A stretch of DNA of 44,559 bases from sequence record NC_047769.1, one strand, 5' to 3'. Both the position numbers and the translations under genes were made by a program. The notes under the pieces are model-generated. The model searched no databases. It was not told the DNA's origin and was given only the letters and a program-made list of their open reading frames with translations. Below are positions 3,163-44,559 of the stretch, one piece after another (position 1 is the stretch's first letter; every line of letters begins with the position of its first letter). Source of the stretch: Escherichia phage AAPEc6.

Positions 3163-5790
3163 ATGCAAGACCTACACGCTATTCAACTTCAACTTGAAGA
3201 AGAAATGTTTAACGGCGGTATCCGTCGCTTTGAAGCGGACCAACAACGCCAGATTGCATCCGGTAATGAATCAGACACGGCATGGAATCGCCGCTTATTG
3301 TCCGAGTTAATCGCGCCAATGGCTGAAGGTATTCAGGCATACAAGGAAGAGTATGAAGGTAAAAGAGGCCGTGCACCGCGTGCATTAGCTTTCATTAACT
3401 GCGTAGAAAACGAAGTGGCAGCATATATCACGATGAAAATCGTTATGGATATGCTGAACACGGATGTAACCTTGCAGGCTATAGCCATGAATGTAGCTGA
3501 CCGCATTGAGGACCAAGTACGTTTTAGCAAGCTGGAAGGTCACGCCGCCAAATACTTTGAAAAAGTTAAGAAGTCACTTAAGGCAAGTAAGACTAAATCA
3601 TATCGCCATGCGCACAATGTAGCGGTAGTGGCTGAAAAGTCTGTCGCTGACCGTGATGCGGACTTCTCCCGCTGGGAGGCATGGCCTAAAGATACCTTGT
3701 TGCAAATAGGCATGACCTTGCTAGAAATCTTGGAGAATAGCGTATTCTTCAACGGGCAACCTGTTTTCCTTCGTACCTTGCGCACTAACGGCGGCAAGCA
3801 TGGCGTTTACTACTTACAGACTAGCGAACACGTGGGTGAATGGATAACTGCATTTAAAGAGCACGTAGCTCAGCTGAGTCCAGCCTATGCACCTTGCGTT
3901 ATTCCTCCGCGTCCGTGGGTTTCTCCGTTTAATGGTGGCTTTCACACCGAGAAGGTGGCAAGTCGCATCCGTCTAGTAAAAGGTAACCGCGAGCACGTCC
4001 GCAAGCTGACTAAAAAGCAAATGCCAGCGGTTTATAAGGCTGTTAATGCATTGCAAGCCACTAAATGGCAGGTTAACAAGGAAGTGTTGCAGGTAGTAGA
4101 AGATGTTATTCGTCTAGACCTCGGTTATGGTGTACCTTCCTTTAAGCCGCTCATTGACCGCGAGAACAAACCAGCTAACCCTGTTCCTCTTGAGTTCCAA
4201 CACCTGCGAGGCCGTGAACTGAAAGAGATGCTTACGCCAGAACAGTGGCAAGCTTTTATAAACTGGAAAGGAGAATGTACCAAGCTGTATACCGCTGAAA
4301 CTAAGCGCGGAAGCAAGTCGGCGGCAACCGTTCGCATGGTTGGACAGGCCCGTAAATACAGCCAGTTTGACGCAATTTATTTTGTGTATGCACTGGACAG
4401 CCGCAGCCGTGTATACGCGCAATCTAGCACGCTCTCGCCGCAATCAAATGACTTAGGCAAGGCATTGCTCCGTTTTACCGAAGGGCAGCGTCTTGATAGC
4501 GCTGAGGCGCTTAAGTGGTTTTTGGTGAACGGGGCGAATAACTGGGGTTGGGATAAGAAAACTTTTGACGTGCGCACCGCTAACGTGCTGGACGGCGAGT
4601 TTCAAGACATGTGCCGCGACATTGCAGCCGACCCGCTGACCTTCACTCAATGGGTAAATGCCGACTCCCCTTACGGCTTCCTTGCATGGTGCTTTGAATA
4701 TGCGCGTTATCTTGATGCACTGGATGAAGGCACGCAAGACCAATTCATGACGCACCTCCCAGTCCATCAAGATGGTAGTTGTTCTGGTATACAGCACTAC
4801 AGTGCTATGCTACGCGATGCAGTAGGTGCGAAAGCAGTAAACCTTAAGCCCTCTGACTCTCCTCAAGATATTTATGGTGCCGTTGCGCAGGTAGTAATTC
4901 AGAAGAATTATGCATACATGAATGCAGAGGCTGCGGAAACCTTCACTTCTGGCAGCGTGACTTTAACAGGTGCGGAACTGCGTAGTATGGCTAGTGCGTG
5001 GGATATGATAGGAATCACTCGCGGCCTAACCAAAAAGCCCGTAATGACACTACCTTATGGCAGCACACGTCTAACCTGCCGTGAGTCAGTGATTGATTAT
5101 ATCGTTGATTTAGAAGAAAAAGAGGCCCAACGGGCTATTGCGGAAGGGCGTACCGCCAATCCTGTACACCCTTTTGATAATGACCGTAAAGACAGCCTTA
5201 CACCTAGCGCAGCTTATAACTATATGACAGCTTTAATCTGGCCTTCTATTTCGGAAGTGGTTAAAGCTCCTATAGTGGCAATGAAAATGATTCGTCAGCT
5301 TGCCCGTTTCGCAGCTAAAAGGAATGAAGGCCTAGAGTATACCCTGCCTACTGGCTTCATCTTGCAACAAAAGATTATGGCTACTGATATGCTCCGCGTA
5401 TCTACTTGCTTGATGGGAGAAATCAAGATGAGTCTACAGATTGAAACAGACGTAGTGGATGAAACGGCAATGATGGGCGCTGCTGCTCCTAACTTTGTGC
5501 ATGGTCATGATGCCAGCCACCTTATCTTAACAGTCTGCGACCTTGTTGATAAAGGGATTACATCTATCGCAGTTATTCATGACTCTTTTGGCACTCATGC
5601 AGGCCGTACAGCCGACCTTCGTGATAGCTTAAGGGCAGAAATGGTGAAGATGTATCAAGGCCGTAATGCGCTGCAAAGCCTGCTAGATGAGCACGAAGAA
5701 CGCTGGTTAGTTGATACCGGAATACAAGTACCAGAGCAAGGGGAGTTTGACCTTAACGAAATCTTAGTTTCAGACTATTGCTTCGCATAA
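3163..5790 (+). CDS. Single-subunit DNA-directed RNA polymerase (T7 gene 1 family)
   Basis: 875 aa; motifs [29 protein letters not shown] and C-terminal ...DYCFA match T7/SP6-type RNAPs; AGGAG RBS. Confidence 0.97.
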
Positions 5791-12370: not shown

Positions 12371-12393
12371 ATTTACTGGACACTATAGAAGGA
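12371..12393 (+). promoter_or_regulatory. Phage promoter (ATTTACTGGACACTATAGAAGGA)
   Basis: Exact consensus; preceded by GTCTAACATG, a palindrome half-site relic. Confidence 0.8.
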
Positions 12394-30716: not shown

Positions 30717-33700
30717 ATGGAACAAGACATTAAGACTAATTGGGCTGGATATGTCCAGTCTACTCCTGAGCCGTTTTCTATTGAGGCGGCTCCGGTATCG
30801 GCTCCTACGATACGCCAGCGTAATGAGTTACAAGAGCAAGTTCTTGAAGCTAAAGCTGACGCTGACATTTTAGGTGCTGTAGGTGCTGCCTTCCAGAATG
30901 AGTGGTTGGCATTCGGAGGCAAGCGGTGGTATGACCGTGCCACTGCTGATTTCACACCTCAACCAGACTTTGAGATACAACCTGAGCAACGTGAAGCACT
31001 ACGTTTCAAATATGGCACGGATATGATGCAGACAATCACTGAGGGTGTTCGTTCTGAGGATGAATTGAACTTCCGTATTCAGAATGCTGATGAAGACCTT
31101 GAGCGCAATAAGCGCATTGCTCAGGCTGGCTGGGTTGGCTCTGTGGCGACGATTGGCGCTGCTGTGCTTGACCCTGTGGGATGGGTTGCCTCTATTCCAA
31201 CCGGTGGTGCCGCTAAAGTTGGACTCGTAGGCCGTGCTGTGCGTGGCGCTATCGCCGCTGGCGTGAGTAATGCCGCTATTGAATCCGTATTGGTCCAAGG
31301 TGACATGACTCGTGATTTAGATGACATTATGGTAGCACTAGGTTCCGGTATGGCTATGGGTGGCATTATTGGCGCTGTAGCGCGTGGTAGGGCCACTAAG
31401 CTCAGTGAGCAAGGGGATGACAGGGCTGCGAGCATTGTGCGCAGTGCAGACGCAGGGGACCGCTATGTGCGTGCTGTTGCTGATGATAGTATCGGTGCGA
31501 TGCGTGTTAAGGGTGAAGAGGTACTCACTGAGGGTGCATTTGATATCTCTAGCAAAGGTGAAGATTTGCTGAAAACCCTACAGCGGGAAGGTAATGCAAT
31601 TGATATGACCCCTCGCCGCTGGGCCGGAACTCTGTCTGCCCTTGGTACTGTCGTACATTCCTCTCAGGATGCAAGTGTACGCGGCCTTGGTGCTCGCCTG
31701 TTTGAGTCCCCCCAAGGCTTAGGTATGCAGAAGGCATCTGCTAGTCTCATGCAGAATACTAACTTGAACCGTCTGAAATCTGCTGATATGAATCGTTTCA
31801 ACGATGGGTTCGATTTATGGCTCAAAGAGAATAATATCAACCCGGTTGCAGGTCATACTAACTCTCACTATGTGCAGCAATATAATGAGAAGGTATGGGA
31901 AGCTGTACGCATCGGTATGGATGAGTCTACGCCTAAGTCTATCCGTATGGCAGCAGAGGGGCAGCAAGCTATGTATCGTGAAGCATTAGCATTACGTCAA
32001 CGCTCTGGTGAAGCTGGGTTTGAAAAGGTTAAAGCAGATGATAAGTACATGCCTGATATTTTTGACAGTATGAAGGCTCGTCGTCAGTTCAGTATGCACG
32101 ATAAAGAGGACATCATTGAGTTATTCTCTCGTGCATACCAGAATGGTTCTCGTAAGGTTCCAAAGGAAGTGGCTGATGATATTGCACGAGCACAAGTAAA
32201 CCGCGTTGCTGATGCCACCTTGACCGGACAGCTTAGCTTTGAAAAGGCTATGTCTGGTCAAACCAAAGCAGAATATGAAGCACTCATGCGCAAAGCAGGC
32301 TTTAGTGATGAAGAGATTGAAAAGATGGTAGAAGCTCTGGATAATAAAGAAACCAGAGATAATATCTCTAACCGAGCTAAGATGAGTTTAGGCTTAGATG
32401 TTACTCAAGAGTACAATGGCATTCGTATGCGTGACTTTATGAACACTAACGTGGAAGAGTTAACAGATAACTACATGAAGGAAGCGGCAGGTGGTGCTGC
32501 CTTGGCTCGTCAAGGTTTCTCTACCTATCAGGCTGCACTTAATGCAATTGATCTTGTAGAGCGAAATGCACGAAATGCAGCTAAAGATACAAAAGCACAC
32601 GCACAATTTGAAGCGGAGTCGGCTAAGATCCGTCAATCAGAGCCTGATTACAAGAAGGCACAAGAGAAGATTGAAGAGTTAAAGAAGCGACTTAAATTGA
32701 AAGAGAAAGATGAAGCAGCAGGTCTGGCTATTGATGAAGAAATCCGTCAGATGCGAGAGGGGCTTCGCTTGATTATGGGTAAATCTATCGATTCAAACCC
32801 ACAAGATTTGTCTACTAAAATGCTGCGTCGTGGGCGTGACATTACAGGCGTACTTCGCTTAGGTCAGATGGGCTTCGCACAGCTAGGTGAACTTGCTAAC
32901 TTCATGGGTGAGTTTGGTATTGCTGCCACCACTATGGCTTTAGGTAAGCAATTCCGCTTCACCTCTAAGGCGTTGCGTAATGGCGATGGCTTCTTTCGAG
33001 ATAAGAATTTAGCTGAGGTTGAGCGAATGGTAGGTTACATTGGTGAAGACAACTGGCTAACAACTAAGGGTGCGCGTCCAGATGAGTTTGGTGATGTAAC
33101 CACAGTGCGAGGTATGATGGCCCATTTTGACCAGTCCATGAACTCTATACGACGTGCTCAGACAAACCTATCCCTCTTCCGCATGGCACAGGGTTCTCTG
33201 GAGCGAATGACCAATAGGCAAATAGCTTTGTCTTTCATTGACCACCTTGAAGGCAAGAAGATTATTCCTCAGAAGAAACTGGAGGAACTTGGTCTTACTC
33301 AGGAGTTCATGACTAATCTACAGAAGCACTATGATGCTAACTCTAAAGGTTCTGGCTTGCTTGGCTTTGATACAATGCCTTATGCCATGGGTGAAACTTT
33401 AGCTAATGCTATTCGTCGTAAGTCAGGTCTAATTATCCAACGTAACTTCATTGGTGATGAAGGTATCTGGATGAACAAAGCACTAGGTAAGACATTTGCA
33501 CAGCTTAAGTCATTCTCTCTTGTATCTGGTGAGAAGCAATTTGGTCGAGGGATTCGCCACGATAAGATTGGTCTAGCTAAGAAGACAGCCTTTGGCTTTG
33601 CTTTGGGTTCGATGGTGTATGCAGCGAAAGCCTATGTGAACTCTATTGGACGAGAAGACCAAGATGAATATCTGGAAGAGAAGTTATCGCCTAAAGGGTT

Positions 33701-34025
33701 GGCCTTTGGTGCAATGGGTATGATGAGTACAACTGCTGTATTTAGTCTAGGTGGAGATTTCTTAGGTGGCCTAGGTGTTCTACCTTCTGAGTTAGTACAA
33801 TCCCGTTATGAGGCTGGCTTTCAGACTAAGGGTTTGATAGACCAAATACCACTAGTAGGTGTTGGTCAAGATGCATATCGTTTAGCAGATTCTATAACTA
33901 AATACGCAGAGGGTGATACAGAAGGTGTAGATGTGGCACGTAGGGCTTTACGCTTAGTGCCTCTAGCTAATGTAATAGGAATCCAGAACGCATTGCGTTA
34001 TGGCTTAGATGAACTGGAGGATTAA
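30717..34025 (+). CDS. Large internal virion / ejection protein (gp16-like)
   Basis: 1102 aa; position and size. Confidence 0.75.
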   Translation: MEQDIKTNWAGYVQSTPEPFSIEAAPVSAPTIRQRNELQEQVLEAKADADILGAVGAAFQNEWLAFGGKRWYDRATADFTPQPDFEIQPEQREALRFKYGTDMMQTITEGVRSEDELNFRIQNADEDLERNKRIAQAGWVGSVATIGAAVLDPVGWVASIPTGGAAKVGLVGRAVRGAIAAGVSNAAIESVLVQGDMTRDLDDIMVALGSGMAMGGIIGAVARGRATKLSEQGDDRAASIVRSADAGDRYVRAVADDSIGAMRVKGEEVLTEGAFDISSKGEDLLKTLQREGNAIDMTPRRWAGTLSALGTVVHSSQDASVRGLGARLFESPQGLGMQKASASLMQNTNLNRLKSADMNRFNDGFDLWLKENNINPVAGHTNSHYVQQYNEKVWEAVRIGMDESTPKSIRMAAEGQQAMYREALALRQRSGEAGFEKVKADDKYMPDIFDSMKARRQFSMHDKEDIIELFSRAYQNGSRKVPKEVADDIARAQVNRVADATLTGQLSFEKAMSGQTKAEYEALMRKAGFSDEEIEKMVEALDNKETRDNISNRAKMSLGLDVTQEYNGIRMRDFMNTNVEELTDNYMKEAAGGAALARQGFSTYQAALNAIDLVERNARNAAKDTKAHAQFEAESAKIRQSEPDYKKAQEKIEELKKRLKLKEKDEAAGLAIDEEIRQMREGLRLIMGKSIDSNPQDLSTKMLRRGRDITGVLRLGQMGFAQLGELANFMGEFGIAATTMALGKQFRFTSKALRNGDGFFRDKNLAEVERMVGYIGEDNWLTTKGARPDEFGDVTTVRGMMAHFDQSMNSIRRAQTNLSLFRMAQGSLERMTNRQIALSFIDHLEGKKIIPQKKLEELGLTQEFMTNLQKHYDANSKGSGLLGFDTMPYAMGETLANAIRRKSGLIIQRNFIGDEGIWMNKALGKTFAQLKSFSLVSGEKQFGRGIRHDKIGLAKKTAFGFALGSMVYAAKAYVNSIGREDQDEYLEEKLSPKGLAFGAMGMMSTTAVFSLGGDFLGGLGVLPSELVQSRYEAGFQTKGLIDQIPLVGVGQDAYRLADSITKYAEGDTEGVDVARRALRLVPLANVIGIQNALRYGLDELED

Positions 34026-34987
34026 TGAGTTATACTTTCACAGAACATATAGCCAACGGTACGCAAGTAACCTATCCCTTTAGCTTTGCTGGTAGGGATA
34101 AAGGTTATCTTCGTGCCTCAGATGTGATAGTGGAGTCTCTTCAAGGTAACACTTGGATTGAGGTTACATCTGGCTGGCAACTAACTGGCACGCACCAGAT
34201 TACTTTTGATGTAGCACCAGTTGCAGGTTTGAAGTTCCGTATTCGAAGGGAAGTACAAAAGGAGTATCCATACGCTGAGTTTGACCGTGGTGTTACCTTG
34301 GATATGAAGTCTTTAAATGGTTCTTTCATTCATATACTGGAGATTACACAGGAGTTACTTGACGGGTTTTATCCAGAAGGATACTTCATTAAACAGAATG
34401 TAAGCTGGGGCGGCAATAAGATTACTGATTTGGCTGATGGCACAAATCCTGGAGATGCAGTAAATAAAGGGCAGCTTGATGCCATCGACAAGAAGCATAC
34501 AGATTGGAACGCCAAACAGGACATTGAGATTGCTGGCCTTAAGGCTGGTATGACTTCTGGTATTGCGCACAGAACTGTTCCTTGGTACACGATAGCCCAA
34601 GGTGGTGAGATTTCCGTAAAACCACCTTATGAATTTCAAGATGCACTAGTTTTCCTTAATGGGGTATTGCAGCACCAAATTGTAGGCGCATACTCTATAA
34701 GCAACAACACTATCACTTTCGCAGAGCCGCTTGTGGCGGGTACAGAGGTGTATGTGCTGATTGGTAGTCGTGTGGCTACATCTGAACCTAATATTCAGTT
34801 GGAGTTGAACTTTGACTTAGTAGAAGGCCAACAAGTAGTACAGATTGGCTCTGCATTTAAGTACATTGAGGTCTACCTTGATGGATTATTACAACCTAAA
34901 CTTGCTTATCAGGTAGACGGTGACATTGTTACTTTCTCAGAAAGAGTACCAGAATGCCGGATGACTGCTAAGATTATCACAGCATAA
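34025..34987 (+). CDS. Tail fiber adaptor (T7 gp17 N-terminal domain-like)
   Basis: N-terminus YTFTEHIANGTQVTYPFSFAGRDKGYLRASDVIV resembles the T7 tail fiber N-terminal anchoring domain; only 320 aa. Confidence 0.7.
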   Translation: MSYTFTEHIANGTQVTYPFSFAGRDKGYLRASDVIVESLQGNTWIEVTSGWQLTGTHQITFDVAPVAGLKFRIRREVQKEYPYAEFDRGVTLDMKSLNGSFIHILEITQELLDGFYPEGYFIKQNVSWGGNKITDLADGTNPGDAVNKGQLDAIDKKHTDWNAKQDIEIAGLKAGMTSGIAHRTVPWYTIAQGGEISVKPPYEFQDALVFLNGVLQHQIVGAYSISNNTITFAEPLVAGTEVYVLIGSRVATSEPNIQLELNFDLVEGQQVVQIGSAFKYIEVYLDGLLQPKLAYQVDGDIVTFSERVPECRMTAKIITA

Positions 34988-35475: not shown

Positions 35476-35919
35476 ATGCATAGATGGTGTGAATCTCAAG
35501 GTTATACCATCTTACCTTCTGGTGTCATCCTTTCAAAGGGTGGCACCCCTCTCAAGCCTTTCAAGGTGGGTAGGGGTTATTTAGCAGTTAAAATTAAAAA
35601 TAAAGAAGGTAAATGGCGTAATGTCTATGTTCATCACTTAGTGGCTTATAAGTATTTACCTAAAACCGATAATGAAGTAAACCACAAAGACGGCAATAAG
35701 CACAACAATGATGTTAGCAACTTGGAGTGGGTGACAAGAAGCGAGAATAACTACTTAAAATGCAATGGAAATGATAGGAGTGCCTTAAATAATTACTTAG
35801 CAAGATTAAAAGATTGCTTCTTGCAGGGTAAGGGTGTAGCAGAAACCGCTAGGCTTACTGGTAAAAGTGAACCAAGGGTTTCTTCTCTCTTTAAGGAGTG
35901 GCGAAATGGCAAAGGCTAG
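35476..35919 (+). CDS. HNH homing endonuclease
   Basis: Motif VNHKDGNKHNNDVSNLEWVTRSENN; A-rich codon usage; GAGGAG RBS. Confidence 0.85.
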   Translation: MHRWCESQGYTILPSGVILSKGGTPLKPFKVGRGYLAVKIKNKEGKWRNVYVHHLVAYKYLPKTDNEVNHKDGNKHNNDVSNLEWVTRSENNYLKCNGNDRSALNNYLARLKDCFLQGKGVAETARLTGKSEPRVSSLFKEWRNGKG

Positions 35920-37960: not shown

Positions 37961-38239
37961 ATGGCTAATGATTATAGTAGTCAACCATTAACAGGTAAGT
38001 CTAAGCGAAAGCAGGTACAACCTGTAAGTGAAGCACTAATGCTTCCGGTAATCTCAAAAGAGGAAGCTAGTAAGAAAATCAATGTTATTAATGATGCCAC
38101 CAAATCAGGTAAACAGAAAGGGGCCATGGTGTGCCTTGAAGTGGAAGATGGTGTATTGAAGATTGCTATCGCGGTTGATGGCAAAGAAGATTCAGAGTGG
38201 AAGTTAGTGACAGTGGAACCCACTGTTACCCCAGCTTAA
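37961..38239 (+). CDS. Small protein, paralog A (92 aa)
   Basis: Shares the core SGKQKGAMV-LE...L-IA-A...W...VTPA with the next ORF. Confidence 0.6.
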   Translation: MANDYSSQPLTGKSKRKQVQPVSEALMLPVISKEEASKKINVINDATKSGKQKGAMVCLEVEDGVLKIAIAVDGKEDSEWKLVTVEPTVTPA

Positions 38240-38256: not shown

Positions 38257-38550
38257 ATGGCTAAATATGGTACTACAGGTTCTGTTACTGGTCAGGCTTT
38301 TCGAGTAAAAGCAGTACAAACTATTGCAACGGCAATCCCGATGCCTGTTGTTAAAGAAGCAGACCTTAAGAGTAAAGATCACCCTATCAACATCAAACAC
38401 CTGTCAGGTAAGCAGAAAGGTGCAATGGTTGCTCTTGAGAAAGATGACACAACCTTACATATTGCTGTTGCACGTGGTAGTGAACCCACAGACTCTTGGG
38501 ATGTAACTGGTATGGAATCGCTCGCTGTCACTCCAGCAGGTGGAGAATAA
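38257..38550 (+). CDS. Small protein, paralog B (97 aa)
   Basis: AAGGAGGAGG RBS; paralogous to 37961..38239. Confidence 0.6.
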   Translation: MAKYGTTGSVTGQAFRVKAVQTIATAIPMPVVKEADLKSKDHPINIKHLSGKQKGAMVALEKDDTTLHIAVARGSEPTDSWDVTGMESLAVTPAGGE

Positions 38551-38894: not shown

Positions 38895-39002
38895 GATGTG
38901 TTGAATGGTGTGAGCGTATGGTTGCCCAAGCTGCCGAGGATGGCAACTATGATGACTGGAAGAACTACTCTGACTTGTTAGCTCAATGGAAAGGGAGATG
39001 CA

Positions 39003-39152
39003 ATGAAAAAGCTGTTTAAGTCTAAGAAGGTTGTAGGTGCACTGGTTGCACTTGTTATTGCTCTTGTTTCTGTAGGTCTTGGTGTAGACCTTGGCTCTGG
39101 CACGGAATCCTCTGTGACAGATGTGGTCTGCCAAGTGATTACCTGTGAATAA
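39003..39152 (+). CDS. Small membrane protein (49 aa, basic N-terminus plus TM segment)
   Basis: GGGAGA RBS; MKKLFKSKKVVGALVALVIALVSVGLG. Confidence 0.4.
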   Translation: MKKLFKSKKVVGALVALVIALVSVGLGVDLGSGTESSVTDVVCQVITCE

Positions 39153-39366
39153 GTTTCTAGAAGTGCTGGCAGGTCTTATTGGCCTGCTTGTCTCTGCTAA
39201 GAAGAAACAAGAAGAGAAGGAGGCACAAAGTGAAGCGAATCATGTTAGTGACAATCCTGCTGATTGGTTCGCTGACCACTTCCGGGTGTCAGCAGGCGTT
39301 ACCAGAGAAAGCAATGGTGAAACCTCTGAGGCCGACGCTGACGGAAGTTTACGAGGTAGACGATAA
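39145..39366 (+). CDS. Candidate i-spanin (N-terminal TM then charged periplasmic domain); GTG start
   Basis: ORF track; TM segment FLEVLAGLIGLLVSA; overlaps the o-spanin candidate in another frame. Confidence 0.4.
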   Translation: MNKFLEVLAGLIGLLVSAKKKQEEKEAQSEANHVSDNPADWFADHFRVSAGVTRESNGETSEADADGSLRGRR

Positions 39367-39439
39367 GGTCTGCTTTAGTAAGCCTGACGCTACAAAATTA
39401 GGTTTGTATATTCTTTCGCTAGAACGCGGATATAATTAA
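39242..39439 (+). CDS. Candidate o-spanin lipoprotein (Rz1-like)
   Basis: MLVTILLIGSLTTSGC: signal peptide with lipobox-like TSGC; overlapping architecture. Confidence 0.45.
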   Translation: MLVTILLIGSLTTSGCQQALPEKAMVKPLRPTLTEVYEVDDKVCFSKPDATKLGLYILSLERGYN

Positions 39440-39468
39440 TACATAGCTTTATGTATCAGTGTCTTACG

Positions 39469-39492
39469 ATTTACTGGACACTATAGAAGAGG
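39469..39492 (+). promoter_or_regulatory. Phage promoter (ATTTACTGGACACTATAGAAGAGG) driving the tailspike genes
   Basis: Exact consensus; preceded by GTCTTACGAT half-site relic. Confidence 0.85.
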
Positions 39493-39570
39493 TAAGATAG
39501 CGCCGTTCTTTTGAGCGGCCTATTACTAGCCAATCTTCATAGGGAGGGTTGGAAAGTAATAGGAGATAGC

Positions 39571-41469
39571 ATGGCTAAATTAACCAAACCTAATACTGAA
39601 GGAATCTTGCATAAAGGACAATCTTTGTATGAGTACCTTGATGAGAGAGTTTTAACATCAAAGCCGTTTGGTGCTGCAGGTGACGCCACTACTGATGATA
39701 CGGAGGTTATAGCTGCTTCATTAAACTCTCAGAAAGCTGTCACAGTCTCAGATGGTGTATTCTCTAGCTCTGGTATTAATAGTAATTACTGTAACTTAGA
39801 CGGTAGGGGTAGTGGCGTGCTAAGTCACCGTTCCAGTACAGGTAACTACTTAGTATTTAACAATCTACGTGCAGGTCGTTTAAGTAATATTACGGTAGAA
39901 AGTAATAAGGCGACTGATACAACTCAGGGACAGCAGGTGTCTCTTGCTGGTGGAAGTGATGTTACTGTAAGTGACGTTAACTTCTCAAACGTTAAAGGTA
40001 CTGGTTTCAGTTTAATCGCATACCCTAATGATGCGCCACCTGATGGACTTATGATTAAAGGCATTCGAGGTAGCTATTCAGGCTATGCTACTAATAAGGC
40101 AGCAGGATGCGTACTTGCTGACTCCTCAGTTAACTCCCTCATAGATAACGTCATTGCTAAGAACTACCCTCAGTTCGGAGCAGTAGAGTTGAAAGGTACA
40201 GCCAGTTACAACATAGTCAGTAATGTTATAGGGGCAGATTGCCAGCATGTAACTTACAACGGCACTGAAGGGCCAATAGCTCCTTCTAATAACCTTATCA
40301 AGGGGATGATGGCTAATAACCCTAAGTATGCAGCGGTTGTTGCAGGCAAAGGAAGTACGAACTTAATCTCAGACGTGCTCGTAGATTACTCAACTTCTGA
40401 TGCTAGGCAGGCTCATGGTGTTACAGTAGAGGGTTCTGATAACGTCATAAATAATGTACTTATGTCAGGATGTGATGGTACTAACTCTTTAGGGCAAGGG
40501 CAGACTGCTACAATTGCACGCTTTATAGGTACAGCTAATAACAACTATGCGTCTGTATTTCCTAGCTACAGTGCTACAGGTGTTATTACTTTCGAATCCG
40601 GCTCTACCCGTAACTTCGTAGAGGTAAAGCACCCTGGCAGGAGAAACGACCTTCTCAGTTCTGCTAGTACTATTGACGGTGCAGCTACTATTGACGGCAC
40701 TAGTAATAGTAACGTAGTGCACGCACCTGCCTTAGGGCAGTACATAGGTAGTATGTCAGGTAGGTTCGAATGGCGGATTAAGTCCATGTCACTCCCTTCA
40801 GGCGTTCTTACTTCTGCTGATAAGTACAGAATGCTTGGAGATGGTGCTGTGTCATTAGCTGTAGGTGGGGGCACTTCTTCTCAAGTTCGCCTATTTACTT
40901 CTGATGGTACTTCTCGGGCAGTGTCCCTCACCAACGGTAACGTGCGTCTTTCTACCAGTAGCACAGGCTTTTTGCAGTTAGGTGCTGATGCAATGACCCC
41001 AGACAGTACTGGTACATACGCATTAGGTTCCGCCAGCCGAGCATGGTCTGGCGGTTTTACTCAAGCAGCATTCACTGTTACCTCAGATGCTCGGTGTAAA
41101 ACAGAACCTCTTACTATCTCAGATGCCTTACTGGATGCTTGGTCTGAAGTTGACTTTGTGCAGTTTCAGTATTTGGATCGTGTTGAGGAGAAGGGTGCAG
41201 ACTCAGCTAGATGGCACTTCGGTATCATCGCTCAGCGAGCTAAGGAGGCTTTCGAACGTCACGGTATAGATGCACATCGCTATGGCTTCTTGTGCTTCGA
41301 CAGTTGGGATGATGTATACGAGGAAGATGCCAATGGCTCTCGTAAACTGATTACACCAGCAGGTTCCCGCTACGGTATTCGTTACGAGGAAGTACTGATA
41401 TTAGAGGCTGCGTTGATGCGGCGGACTATTAAGCGTATGCAGGAAGCACTAGCTTCCCTGCCTAAGTAA
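39571..41469 (+). CDS. Tailspike capsule depolymerase, beta-helix lyase-like, with C-terminal intramolecular chaperone domain
   Basis: 632 aa from the ATG at 39571 (AGGAGA RBS); repetitive N/V/G/S beta-helix-like coils; C-terminal TSDARCK...HFGIIAQ shared with the next tailspike. Confidence 0.8.
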   Translation: MAKLTKPNTEGILHKGQSLYEYLDERVLTSKPFGAAGDATTDDTEVIAASLNSQKAVTVSDGVFSSSGINSNYCNLDGRGSGVLSHRSSTGNYLVFNNLRAGRLSNITVESNKATDTTQGQQVSLAGGSDVTVSDVNFSNVKGTGFSLIAYPNDAPPDGLMIKGIRGSYSGYATNKAAGCVLADSSVNSLIDNVIAKNYPQFGAVELKGTASYNIVSNVIGADCQHVTYNGTEGPIAPSNNLIKGMMANNPKYAAVVAGKGSTNLISDVLVDYSTSDARQAHGVTVEGSDNVINNVLMSGCDGTNSLGQGQTATIARFIGTANNNYASVFPSYSATGVITFESGSTRNFVEVKHPGRRNDLLSSASTIDGAATIDGTSNSNVVHAPALGQYIGSMSGRFEWRIKSMSLPSGVLTSADKYRMLGDGAVSLAVGGGTSSQVRLFTSDGTSRAVSLTNGNVRLSTSSTGFLQLGADAMTPDSTGTYALGSASRAWSGGFTQAAFTVTSDARCKTEPLTISDALLDAWSEVDFVQFQYLDRVEEKGADSARWHFGIIAQRAKEAFERHGIDAHRYGFLCFDSWDDVYEEDANGSRKLITPAGSRYGIRYEEVLILEAALMRRTIKRMQEALASLPK

Positions 41470-41554
41470 GCAACAGGCAGTGCGTAAGCACTGCTTTTAG
41501 CGCAACTTTTCTTAAAGGTTATCATGATGGTAGCCTTTCAGAAAAGGAGGTTAC

Positions 41555-43990
41555 ATGATTCAAAGACTAGGTTCTTCATTAGTTAAATTCAAGAGTAAAA
41601 TAGCAGGTGCAATCTGGCGTAACTTGGATGACAAGCTCACCGAGGTTGTATCGCTTAAAGATTTTGGAGCCAAAGGTGATGGTAAGACAAACGACCAAGA
41701 TGCAGTAAATGCAGCGATGGCTTCAGGTAAGAGAATTGACGGTGCTGGTGCTACTTACAAAGTATCATCTTTACCTGACATGGAGCGATTCTATAACACC
41801 CGCTTCGTATGGGAACGTTTAGCAGGTCAACCTCTTTACTATGTGAGTAAAGGTTTTATCAATGGTGAACTATATAAAATCACGGATAACCCTTATTACA
41901 ATGCTTGGCCTCAAGACAAAGCGTTTGTATATGAGAACGTGATATATGCACCTTACATGGGTAGTGACCGTCATGGTGTTAGTCGTCTGCATGTATCATG
42001 GGTTAAGTCTGGTGACGATGGTCAAACATGGTCTACTCCAGAGTGGTTAACTGATCTGCATCCAGATTACCCTACAGTGAACTATCATTGTATGAGTATG
42101 GGTGTATGTCGCAACCGCCTGTTTGCCATGATTGAAACACGTACTTTAGCCAAGAACGCACTAACCAATTGTGCATTGTGGGATCGCCCTATGTCTCGTA
42201 GTCTGCATCTTACTGGTGGTATCACTAAGGCTGCAAATCAGAGATATGCAACAATCCATGTACCTGATCACGGACTCTTCGTGGGCGATTTTGTTAACTT
42301 CTCTAATTCTGCGGTAACAGGTGTATCAGGTGATATGACTGTTGCAACGGTAATAGATAAGGACAACTTCACGGTTCTTACACCTAACCAGCAGACTTCA
42401 GATTTGAATAACGATGGAAAGAGTTGGCACATGGGTACTTCTTTCCATAAGTCTCCATGGCGTAAGACAGATCTTGGTCTAATCCCTCGTGTCACAGAGG
42501 TGCATAGCTTTGCTACTATTGATAACAATGGCTTTGTTATGGGCTATCATCAAGGTGATGTAGCTCCACGAGAAGTTGGTCTTTTCTACTTCCCTGATGC
42601 TTTCAATAGCCCATCTAATTATGTTCGTCGTCAGATACCATCTGAGTATGAACCAGATGCGGCAGAGCCATGCATCAAGTACTATGACGGTGTATTATAC
42701 CTTATCACTCGTGGCACTCGTGGTGACAGACTTGGAAGCTCTTTGCATCGTAGCAGAGATATAGGTCAGACTTGGGAGTCACTGAGATTTCCACATAATG
42801 TTCATCATACTACCTTACCTTTTGCTAAAGTAGGAGATGACCTTATTATGTTTGGTTCAGAACGTGCAGAAAATGAATGGGAAGCAGGTGCACCAGATGA
42901 TCGTTACAAGGCATCTTATCCTCGTACCTTCTATGCACGATTGAATGTAAACAATTGGAATGCAGATGATATTGAATGGGTTAACATCACAGACCAAATC
43001 TATCAAGGTGACATTGTGAACTCTAGTGTAGGTGTAGGTTCTGTTGTAGTTAAAGACAGCTACATTTACTATATCTTTGGTGGAGAAAACCATTTCAACC
43101 CAATGACTTATGGTGACAACAAAGATAGAGACCCATTTAAAGGTCATGGACACCCTACTGATATATACTGCTATAAGATGCAGATTGCAAATGACAATCG
43201 TGTATCTCGTAAGTTTACATATGGTGCAACTCCGGGTCAAGCTATACCTACTTTCATGGGTACTGATGGAATACGAAATATCCCTGCACCTTTGTATTTC
43301 TCAGATAACATTGTTACAGAGGATACTAAAGTTGGACACTTAACACTTAAAGCAAGCACAAGTTCCAATATACGATCTGAAGTGCAGATGGAAGGTGAAT
43401 ATGGCTTTATTGGCAAGTCTGTTCCAAAGGACAACCCAACTGGTCAACGTTTGATTATTTGTGGTGGAGAAGAGACTTCGTCCTCTTCAGGTGCACAGAT
43501 AACTTTGCACGGCTCTAATTCAAGTAATGCTAAGCGTATCACTTATAACGGAAATGAGCACCTATTCCAAGGTGCACCAATCATGCCTGCTGTAGATAAC
43601 CAGTTTGCTGCTGGTGGACCCAGTAACCGATTCACGACCATCTACCTAGGTAGTGACCCTGTTACAACTTCAGATGCTGACCACAAGTACGGTATCTCTA
43701 GTATTAATACCAAGGTGTTAAAGGCTTGGAGCAGGGTTGGTTTTAAACAGTATGGTTTGAATAGTGAAGCAGAGAGGAACCTTGATAGCATACACTTCGG
43801 TGTCTTGGCTCAGGATATTGTAGCTGCTTTTGAAGCTGAAGGGTTAGATGCCATTAAGTATGGAATTGTGTCCTTCGAAGAAGGTAGGTACGGTGTGAGG
43901 TATAGTGAAGTTCTAACCCTAGAGGCTGCTTATACTCGTTATCGTTTAGACAAGTTAGAGGAGATGTATGCCACTAATAGAATCAGTTAA
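41555..43990 (+). CDS. Tailspike endosialidase (endo-N-acetylneuraminidase) with C-terminal intramolecular chaperone domain
   Basis: 811 aa; two Asp-box motifs (SGDDGQTW, SRDIGQTW); C-terminal TSDADHK...HFGVLAQ; AAGGAGG RBS. Confidence 0.88.
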   Translation: MIQRLGSSLVKFKSKIAGAIWRNLDDKLTEVVSLKDFGAKGDGKTNDQDAVNAAMASGKRIDGAGATYKVSSLPDMERFYNTRFVWERLAGQPLYYVSKGFINGELYKITDNPYYNAWPQDKAFVYENVIYAPYMGSDRHGVSRLHVSWVKSGDDGQTWSTPEWLTDLHPDYPTVNYHCMSMGVCRNRLFAMIETRTLAKNALTNCALWDRPMSRSLHLTGGITKAANQRYATIHVPDHGLFVGDFVNFSNSAVTGVSGDMTVATVIDKDNFTVLTPNQQTSDLNNDGKSWHMGTSFHKSPWRKTDLGLIPRVTEVHSFATIDNNGFVMGYHQGDVAPREVGLFYFPDAFNSPSNYVRRQIPSEYEPDAAEPCIKYYDGVLYLITRGTRGDRLGSSLHRSRDIGQTWESLRFPHNVHHTTLPFAKVGDDLIMFGSERAENEWEAGAPDDRYKASYPRTFYARLNVNNWNADDIEWVNITDQIYQGDIVNSSVGVGSVVVKDSYIYYIFGGENHFNPMTYGDNKDRDPFKGHGHPTDIYCYKMQIANDNRVSRKFTYGATPGQAIPTFMGTDGIRNIPAPLYFSDNIVTEDTKVGHLTLKASTSSNIRSEVQMEGEYGFIGKSVPKDNPTGQRLIICGGEETSSSSGAQITLHGSNSSNAKRITYNGNEHLFQGAPIMPAVDNQFAAGGPSNRFTTIYLGSDPVTTSDADHKYGISSINTKVLKAWSRVGFKQYGLNSEAERNLDSIHFGVLAQDIVAAFEAEGLDAIKYGIVSFEEGRYGVRYSEVLTLEAAYTRYRLDKLEEMYATNRIS

Positions 43991-44117
43991 GCAATCTGCT
44001 GTACGCCAGAACACAGAAGAACTCATTCAATCAGGACGTGACCATAAGCAGGCATATGCCATTGCAAAGGATGTACAACGTCGTACCATGAAGAAACCTT
44101 CTGCATCTTCTGCGTAA
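43968..44117 (+). CDS. Small basic ORF (49 aa) overlapping the endosialidase 3' end
   Basis: GAGGAG 4 nt upstream of the ATG; below the ORF-track cutoff. Confidence 0.3.
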   Translation: MPLIESVKQSAVRQNTEELIQSGRDHKQAYAIAKDVQRRTMKKPSASSA

Positions 44118-44119
44118 GC

Positions 44120-44559
44120 AGGTTAATATCTTAGTGTACACAAGGGCAGACCTAGGTTTGCTCTTAGTGTATTTACAATGGAGGTCTTATGTATATACCT
44201 ATGGAAGCAATAGTAGGTGGCCTATGCTTGTTGATAGGTTTCGTTATAGGCTTAATAGCAAATCCTTAGTCCTGTACAAGGATTAACCAAAGTCAAAATT
44301 TTGATATAGGCGTGTGTCAGCTCTCTCGCCCTCGCCCTCGCCGGGTTGTCCCCATAGGGTGGCCTGAGGGAATCCGTCTTCGACGGGCAGGGCTGAGGTA
44401 CTCATTGGCTAGTACAAGGGAGGCGGAGGGAACGCCTAGGGAGGCCTAGGAATGGCTTAGTGGTGGACAAGGTGATTACCTTAGTGAAGCCTCTTAGTGC
44501 ATTCCTGAGGCCATTCAGGGCGTTTATGAGGGATTGACAGGGTGGGCGTGGGTGGGCTA
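44120..44559 (+). repeat. Right-terminal region: CTTAGTG repeats (about 6 copies) flanking a GC-rich block (44310-44450)
   Basis: Same heptamer family as at the left end; local GC-rich stretch with CCCTCG repeats is atypical for this genome. Confidence 0.55.
44189..44269 (+). CDS. Hydrophobic miniprotein (26 aa, single predicted TM)
   Basis: GGAGG 4 nt upstream of the ATG; MYIPMEAIVGGLCLLIGFVIGLIANP. Confidence 0.25.
   Translation: MYIPMEAIVGGLCLLIGFVIGLIANP

Follow-up and report, generated by a model that had tools for sequence, protein, structure and literature searches.

The right end of the genome of Escherichia phage AAPEc6 (record NC_047769.1) carries two consecutive tailspike genes behind a phage promoter (positions 39469-43990, + strand), and the questions raised by this locus are which capsules the two spikes would attack, how they are mounted on the virion and how both of them are expressed. 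The window denotes here the whole stretch of 44,559 nucleotides (nt) that was analysed. The original prediction for this region proposed the architecture of coliphages with dual specificity for the K1 and K5 capsules, and all its elements were found where it had placed them. The region is 98.7% identical to phage K1-5 at the nucleotide level over 100% of its length, and it aligns with features annotated in that phage as 'K5 lyase' (gp46) and 'K1 endosialidase' (gp47). It is almost certainly the receptor-binding cassette of a K1-5-like Vectrevirus, with a K5 lyase and a K1 endosialidase carried on the adaptor protein gp37.

Both spike genes sit side by side at the right end of the genome, follow a phage promoter and are separated by a conserved spacer. 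In K1-5 (AY370674 / NC_008152), genes 37, 46 and 47 have the same order, the same promoter, the same 85-nt spacer and the same protein lengths (320, 632 and 811 amino acids (aa), respectively), with amino-acid identities of 99.7% for gp37 (1 substitution), 99.4% for gp46 (4 substitutions) and 98.3% for gp47 (14 substitutions). The architecture is K1-5's own, not a variant of it, and is already known; the residual novelty lies in the possible regulatory role of the spacer hairpins alone. What is seen directly in the window is sequence identity, domain content, the catalytic and cleavage residues, a single promoter and the structure of the spacer.

The two predicted capsule-degrading spikes

The upstream gene (39571..41469, + strand) encodes gp46, the K5 lyase tailspike or heparosan lyase, as a precursor of 632 residues. 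Its start codon is the ATG at 39571, exactly as in K1-5 gp46 and in KflA, the K5 lyase of coliphage K5A; a TTG start at 39511, which gives a 652-aa open reading frame (ORF) in the mechanical ORF list, was rejected because the homologues lend no support to a longer form. The protein shares 628 of its 632 residues with K1-5 gp46 and 622 of 632 (98.4%) with KflA, and it matches crystallised KflA (PDB 2x3h) with 1065.7 bits over residues 1-505. This last match, to a solved K5 lyase, upholds as a depolymerase the 632-aa protein that had been proposed to be a polysaccharide-lyase tailspike. The lyase contains no Asp-boxes. It does contain, at exactly the same positions, E206, K208 and Y229, the catalytic residues reportedly proposed for KflA by Thompson et al. 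2010. KflA is a trimeric β-helical K5 lyase (PMC8822698), and the identities of 99.4% to K1-5 gp46 and 98.4% to KflA indicate that the window protein would likewise degrade the K5 heparosan capsule, cleaving the polysaccharide by β-elimination. A lyase inactivated as in phage K1E was considered and rejected, because the reading frame is not truncated and its product has 99.4% identity with K1-5 gp46.

The K5A locus (Y10025.2) resembles that of the window beyond the lyase itself, its upstream promoter being identical and its spacer nearly so. In contrast, the K5A protein encoded at the downstream position of the cassette (slot 2, the lyase gene occupying slot 1) differs from the endosialidase of the window, and the two have only an MxQRL start in common (MLQRLSTKLIQ in K5A, MIQRLGSSLVK here). 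The K5-lyase body is also held by a solved tail spike of 843 aa (PDB 9vvr_A), in which residues 229-842 of the chain correspond to residues 16-631 of the window protein, and which has approximately 228 extra N-terminal residues relative to it.

The downstream gene (41555..43990, + strand) encodes gp47, the K1 endosialidase tailspike or endo-N-acetylneuraminidase, as a precursor of 811 residues, 797 of which are identical in K1-5 gp47. Pfam recognises four domains in it, all far above their cutoffs: End_N_terminal (residues 39-102), End_beta_propel (103-545, 737 bits), End_beta_barrel (214-296) and End_tail_spike (546-705). The protein is thus built of an N-terminal extension, a six-bladed β-propeller with an inserted β-barrel, and a stalk domain, and it matches the structures of endoNF (PDB 3gvl and 1v0e) with approximately 1329 bits over residues 38-705. 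Two Asp-boxes had been claimed for this 811-aa protein, and both were found, SGDDGQTW at residue 152 (nt 42008-42031) and SRDIGQTW at residue 400 (nt 42752-42775). Loss of the sialidase catalytic residues would have spoken against the assignment, and they are kept: H140, E371, R386 and R437 correspond, by alignment, to H350, E581, R596 and R647 of endoNF, all of them conserved. His350, Glu581, Arg596 and Arg647 are the catalytic residues reported for endoNF by Stummeyer 2005 and Schulz 2010.

With endoNF of coliphage K1F (PDB 1v0e, 3gvl and 3gw6), the window protein shares the β-propeller, β-barrel, stalk and chaperone domains, the catalytic residues and the cleavage site. Solved structures at more than 90% identity cover both spikes. 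The activity of K1-5 gp47 has been published (PMC6966330, PMC5380687), and at 98.3% identity to it the window gp47 is likely to hydrolyse α-2,8-polysialic acid, the polymer of the K1 capsule.

Predicted maturation and mounting of the spikes

Both spikes had been proposed to end in related domains of the intramolecular-chaperone type. This proposal is borne out by the presence of all the motifs on which it had been based, namely TSDARCK, HFGIIAQ and YGIRYEEVLILEAA in the lyase and TSDADHK, HFGVLAQ and YGVRYSEVLTLEAA in the endosialidase, and by matches of both C-termini to Peptidase_S74 (PF13884, the 'chaperone of endosialidase' family) above the Pfam gathering cutoff of 22 bits. The lyase scores 54.4 bits over residues 505-565 and the endosialidase 39.1 bits over residues 706-763. 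The C-terminus of the lyase further matches the chaperone domains of PDB 3gud and 3gw6 (1e-22 and 9e-20, respectively), that of the endosialidase matches 3gw6 (2.7e-58), and the two align with each other (local score 185). The chaperone domains comprise residues 505-632 of the lyase (41083..41466, + strand) and residues 706-811 of the endosialidase (43670..43987, + strand).

In the published mechanism, the scissile bond joins Thr to Ser, the serine owes its activation to a lysine located five residues downstream, and an arginine approximately 14 residues upstream, contributed by a neighbouring chain, serves as a folding sensor (PMC4690869). The lyase has the sequence T504-S505-D-A-R-C-K510, with Ser505 as the predicted cleavage residue and Lys510 as its partner. 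In the endosialidase, the corresponding site is T705-S706 with K711, and R692 is found at position -14; Ser706 and Lys711 align with Ser911 and Lys916 of endoNF, and the solved endoNF chains stop exactly at the residue aligned with T705. The mature β-helix spike of the lyase is predicted to end at Thr504 (nt 41082) and the mature endosialidase at Thr705 (nt 43669). For the K1-5 lyase, a review table lists a precursor of 67 kDa and a mature form of 52 kDa (PMC5380687). Autocleavage of both spikes in AAPEc6 is a well-founded inference from these residues. Each spike would trimerise with the aid of its own C-terminal intramolecular chaperone domain, which, once the trimer has folded correctly, would cleave itself off at the Thr-Ser bond by means of Ser505 and Lys510 in the lyase and of Ser706 and Lys711 in the endosialidase.

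The adaptor gene lies well upstream of the cassette (34025..34987, + strand) and encodes gp37, of which 319 of the 320 residues are identical in K1-5 gp37. Pfam places Phage_T7_tail at residues 3-153 (27.2 bits, cutoff 25.2), and residues 1-317 match a solved 'tail adaptor protein' (PDB 7y22_e, 1e-81). It is a separate protein of about 300 aa with an N-terminal domain like that of T7 gp17 and without a receptor-binding domain. A role of gp37 as an adaptor has been described (PMC6966330, PMC6872550), and the protein combines a T7-like anchor with a T4 gp10-like domain that harbors two docking sites (PMC6872550). The original prediction had recognised a 320-aa adaptor at 34025 with the T7 gp17 N-terminal domain, which stands, but it had also held that the protein carries only that domain, which does not: the domain ends at about residue 153, and the remaining 165 or so residues make up the T4 gp10-like part with the two spike docking sites (PMC6872550).

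Recognition of the adaptor by the spikes involves short N-terminal peptides. K1-5 gp46 binds the middle of gp37 via MAKLTKP, and gp47 binds the C-terminal part of gp37 via MIQRLGSSLVK (PMC6872550, citing Leiman 2007). Both peptides are unchanged in the window, the heptapeptide forming residues 1-7 of the lyase (nt 39571-39591) and the undecapeptide residues 1-11 of the endosialidase (nt 41555-41587). In this respect, the window endosialidase differs from endoNF, which has its own T7 gp17-like N-terminal anchor domain, whereas the 11-residue docking peptide makes the window protein reliant on gp37 (PMC6872550). From what has been published on near-identical proteins, the mature spikes would dock by their N-terminal peptides on two separate sites of the gp37 trimer, and gp37 would attach to the tail by its T7 gp17-like domain, such that every tail vertex would bear both enzymes.

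Promoter and intergenic spacer

The tailspike operon is preceded by an SP6/K1-5-type promoter for the phage RNA polymerase (39469..39489, + strand; ATTTACTGGACACTATAGAAG), in which positions 39469-39486 read ATTTACTGGACACTATAG and are followed by AAG. The consensus of SP6-type promoters is matched 11 times in the window, versus 0.06 times expected by chance. The sequence recurs in four further promoters of the genome; copies of the full 21-mer lie at 12371, 14286 and 22484, and record Y10025.2, which contains the K5 lyase gene of phage K5A, annotates this sequence as the promoter of that gene. Within 39000-44559 the consensus is matched nowhere else, even with up to 6 mismatches in 21 positions, and the presence of a single phage promoter downstream of 39000 agrees with the earlier claim that both spikes are transcribed from one promoter. 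No second phage-type promoter was found between 39490 and 44559 at the same tolerance, and sites resembling sigma-70 promoters are not above the shuffled expectation in the region (11 versus 14.6). A separate promoter for gene 47 was rejected on these grounds.

Between the two spike genes lies an 85-nt spacer (41470..41554, + strand) with two conserved hairpins that covariation supports. Its RNA has a fold energy of -37.3 kcal/mol (z-score -6.4). Hairpin 1 (41475-41496) begins six nt past the stop of the lyase gene, with UUUU after it, and hairpin 2 (41506-41546) ends within the ribosome-binding site of gene 47, AAGGAGG (41544-41550), which it thus partly covers. Conservation of the spacer extends to 107 phage records, which differ in the spike genes on either side of it. 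In an alignment of 14 representatives from phages of Escherichia, Salmonella, Proteus, Lelliottia, Pectobacterium and Klebsiella, compensatory double changes occur at 6 pairs, including 4 of the 8 pairs of hairpin 1, with 97.5% of cells paired, although the structure was derived from the same sequences that entered this test, which biases it somewhat in favour. None of 500 shuffles reached the observed values, and slid controls gave at most 2 such pairs. In the phages of Escherichia, Salmonella, Proteus, Lelliottia and Pectobacterium, compensatory changes have maintained hairpin 1 on no fewer than three independent occasions. No Rfam family reached its gathering score anywhere in the window, and the spacer gave chance-level microRNA hits only.

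Hairpin 1 looks like a terminator, and its location refines the single-promoter claim, which is sustained by the lack of a second phage promoter but now has to accommodate a conserved, terminator-like hairpin between the genes. Since that hairpin and its U-run directly follow the lyase stop codon, expression of the endosialidase would need read-through. The hairpin might instead be a full terminator that makes the spike genes separate units, gene 47 depending on an unrecognised promoter within or close to the spacer, and the position of the structure immediately past the lyase stop and its conservation with compensatory changes are what such an arrangement would predict. This possibility is nevertheless highly improbable given that positions 39490-44559 are devoid of a phage-type promoter at up to 6 mismatches in 21, that the spacer (41470-41554) yielded no sigma-70-like site, and that the U-run counts just 4 residues. 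Moreover, K1-5 virions bear both spikes (PMC6966330), which the near-identical K1-5 cassette could not achieve without read-through. The best reading is that of one promoter and one transcript, with a conserved intergenic element to be read through: the late promoter at 39469 would direct the phage RNA polymerase to make a single transcript for gp46 and, after read-through of the 85-nt spacer, for gp47.

That the spacer is a functional RNA element, as opposed to a block of passive homology, is proposed tentatively, at somewhat less than even confidence. By attenuating transcription or by stabilising the 3' end, hairpin 1 and its U-run could determine how much slot-1 spike mRNA is present relative to slot-2 spike mRNA; tuning of translation is a further candidate role of the element, and the conserved block could also serve as a recombination joint for swaps of spike genes. 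The original K1-5 paper, by Scholl et al. in 2001, is said to have noted the dyad symmetry of the spacer already, so that only a regulatory function would be new.

Among the relatives examined, the slot-2 gene varies, and the slot-1 gene is reduced to 111 aa in K1E and ACG-C91. Several Vectreviruses (VEc3, 6949 and Sem4, and also PSK8 with 630 aa) combine a slot-1 gene of 632 aa with another kind of gene, of about 507-570 aa, in slot 2. Exchange therefore seems to be more frequent at slot 2 than at slot 1. A copy of the spacer with 83% identity is also found in the Escherichia phage alia (NC_052655; locus position 4001-4077), a Justusliebigvirus myophage of 147 kb, directly downstream of a 'tail protein' gene, which suggests that transfer of spike cassettes between unrelated phage families has included the spacer.

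Predicted host range, relatives and genome context

K1-5 infects both K1 and K5 strains by means of gp47 and gp46 mounted on gp37 (PMC6966330, PMC5380687). A further Vectrevirus, vB_EcoP_K1-ULINTec7 (MZ997841), plates on K1 and K5 strains as well (PMC8541614); its K5 lyase and endosialidase align over 100% of the query with 93.3% nucleotide identity, making it the third record with a full-length cassette. AAPEc6 is expected to infect both K1 and K5 E. coli, because its spikes are 98-99% identical to those of K1-5 and their active sites are intact, and because the host ranges of K1-5 and ULINTec7 have been published. As with this predicted dual host range, the enzymatic activities, the autocleavage and the docking on gp37 would carry over from the literature on near-identical proteins.

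No evidence was found that contradicts a K1-5-like cassette with two active spikes, and what weighs against it amounts to caveats. Pfam recognises no β-helix or pectate-lyase family in the body of the lyase at E ≤ 0.01, and for this reason the assignment of its fold depends on the match to 2x3h. The arginine of the lyase, R490, is found at position -15 from the cleavage serine rather than at -14, a register shift of one residue. Neither the 4 substitutions in the lyase relative to K1-5 gp46 nor the 14 in the endosialidase relative to gp47 affect a catalytic or cleavage residue, and the single one in gp37 likewise spares known functional residues, but the spike substitutions may have some bearing on the predicted functions. 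Finally, hairpin 1 and its U-run might terminate part of the transcripts, and equal expression of the two spikes is therefore not assured. Inactivation or retargeting of one spike by those 4 and 14 substitutions in an otherwise intact cassette, leaving a phage specific for K1 or K5 alone as is K1E with its truncated gp46, has a precedent in the degenerate slot-1 gene of relatives (gp46 of 111 aa in K1E and ACG-C91) but is likewise highly improbable, since neither ORF is truncated, no known catalytic, Asp-box or cleavage residue has been lost, and several of the lyase differences (A25E, V246M and T450A) also set the protein apart from active, crystallised KflA, which indicates that natural variation is tolerated at those sites.

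Identification of the window as a K1-5-like phage predicted for K1- and K5-encapsulated E. coli helps annotation as well as the choice of phages or depolymerases for therapy; it adds little new biology. The same arrangement of an adaptor gp37 and two spikes is found in Salmonella phage SP6 (PMC6966330), whose spacer is 89% identical to that of the window and whose slot-2 gene opens with the same MIQRLGSSLV peptide. The capsules of E. coli are the predicted targets of the window spikes, whereas the SP6 spikes are directed at Salmonella O-antigens. In the SP6 record (AY288927.2; locus position 2588-2610), the 'tail fiber protein' gene is annotated as starting at locus position 2608, about 20 nt past the conserved ATG of the MIQRLGSSLV peptide, and the deposited start codon may be positioned too far downstream.

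The window of 44,559 nt corresponds to the complete unit genome of a Vectrevirus and is collinear end to end with K1-5 (AY370674), at nucleotide identities of 90-97% per block. K1-5 is the nearest record in the phage collection for the cassette and for the right half of the window; in the left 25 kb it is narrowly outranked by several Vectrevirus records that lack annotation. The last 234 nt (44326-44559) are 97% identical to the terminal repeat of K1-5, and base 1 of the window corresponds approximately to K1-5 position 235, from which it follows that the record represents a unit-length genome with the right-hand copy of the repeat only. The K1-5 cassette circulates almost unchanged (98.7%) on a more diverged backbone (90-97%), in keeping with the modular mobility that has been published for such spike cassettes.

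A few features of the neighbouring genes deserve mention. A small ORF of 49 aa (43968..44117, + strand) overlaps the end of the endosialidase gene and is, by its relative position, the counterpart of K1-5 gene 48; Pfam gave no match for it. Farther upstream, two small adjacent genes (37961-38239 and 38257-38550, + strand) are the counterparts of K1-5 genes 41 and 42. They are paralogues of each other (local score 139) and have SGKQKGAMV.LE..D..L.IA.A in common. The RefSeq records of K1E and ACG-C91 label their counterparts 'acetyl-CoA acetyltransferase', an annotation that looks unsupported, and neither gene of the window has a Pfam match.

Two segments of the window are absent from K1-5, an HNH endonuclease gene before the terminase gene and a 41-aa insertion in gp36. 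The former is an HNH_3 ORF of 147 aa (42.6 bits; 35476-35919, + strand) located between gene 39 and the gene for the large subunit of the terminase, the start of which (35906) it overlaps by 14 nt. The 435-nt segment missing from K1-5 occurs with approximately 96% identity in 16 other phage records, mostly of Vectrevirus (for example VEc3, EC120 and Mt1B1_P10), so that the gene is present in 17 phage records, VEc3 among them, the kind of distribution that a mobile homing endonuclease would have. The internal virion protein gp36 (30717-34025) has 1102 aa versus 1061 aa in K1-5, owing to an insertion at residues 627-667 (32595-32717) that is rich in lysine and glutamate and has the look of a coiled coil (AHAQFEAESAKIRQSEPDYKKAQEKIEELKKRLKLKEKDEA).

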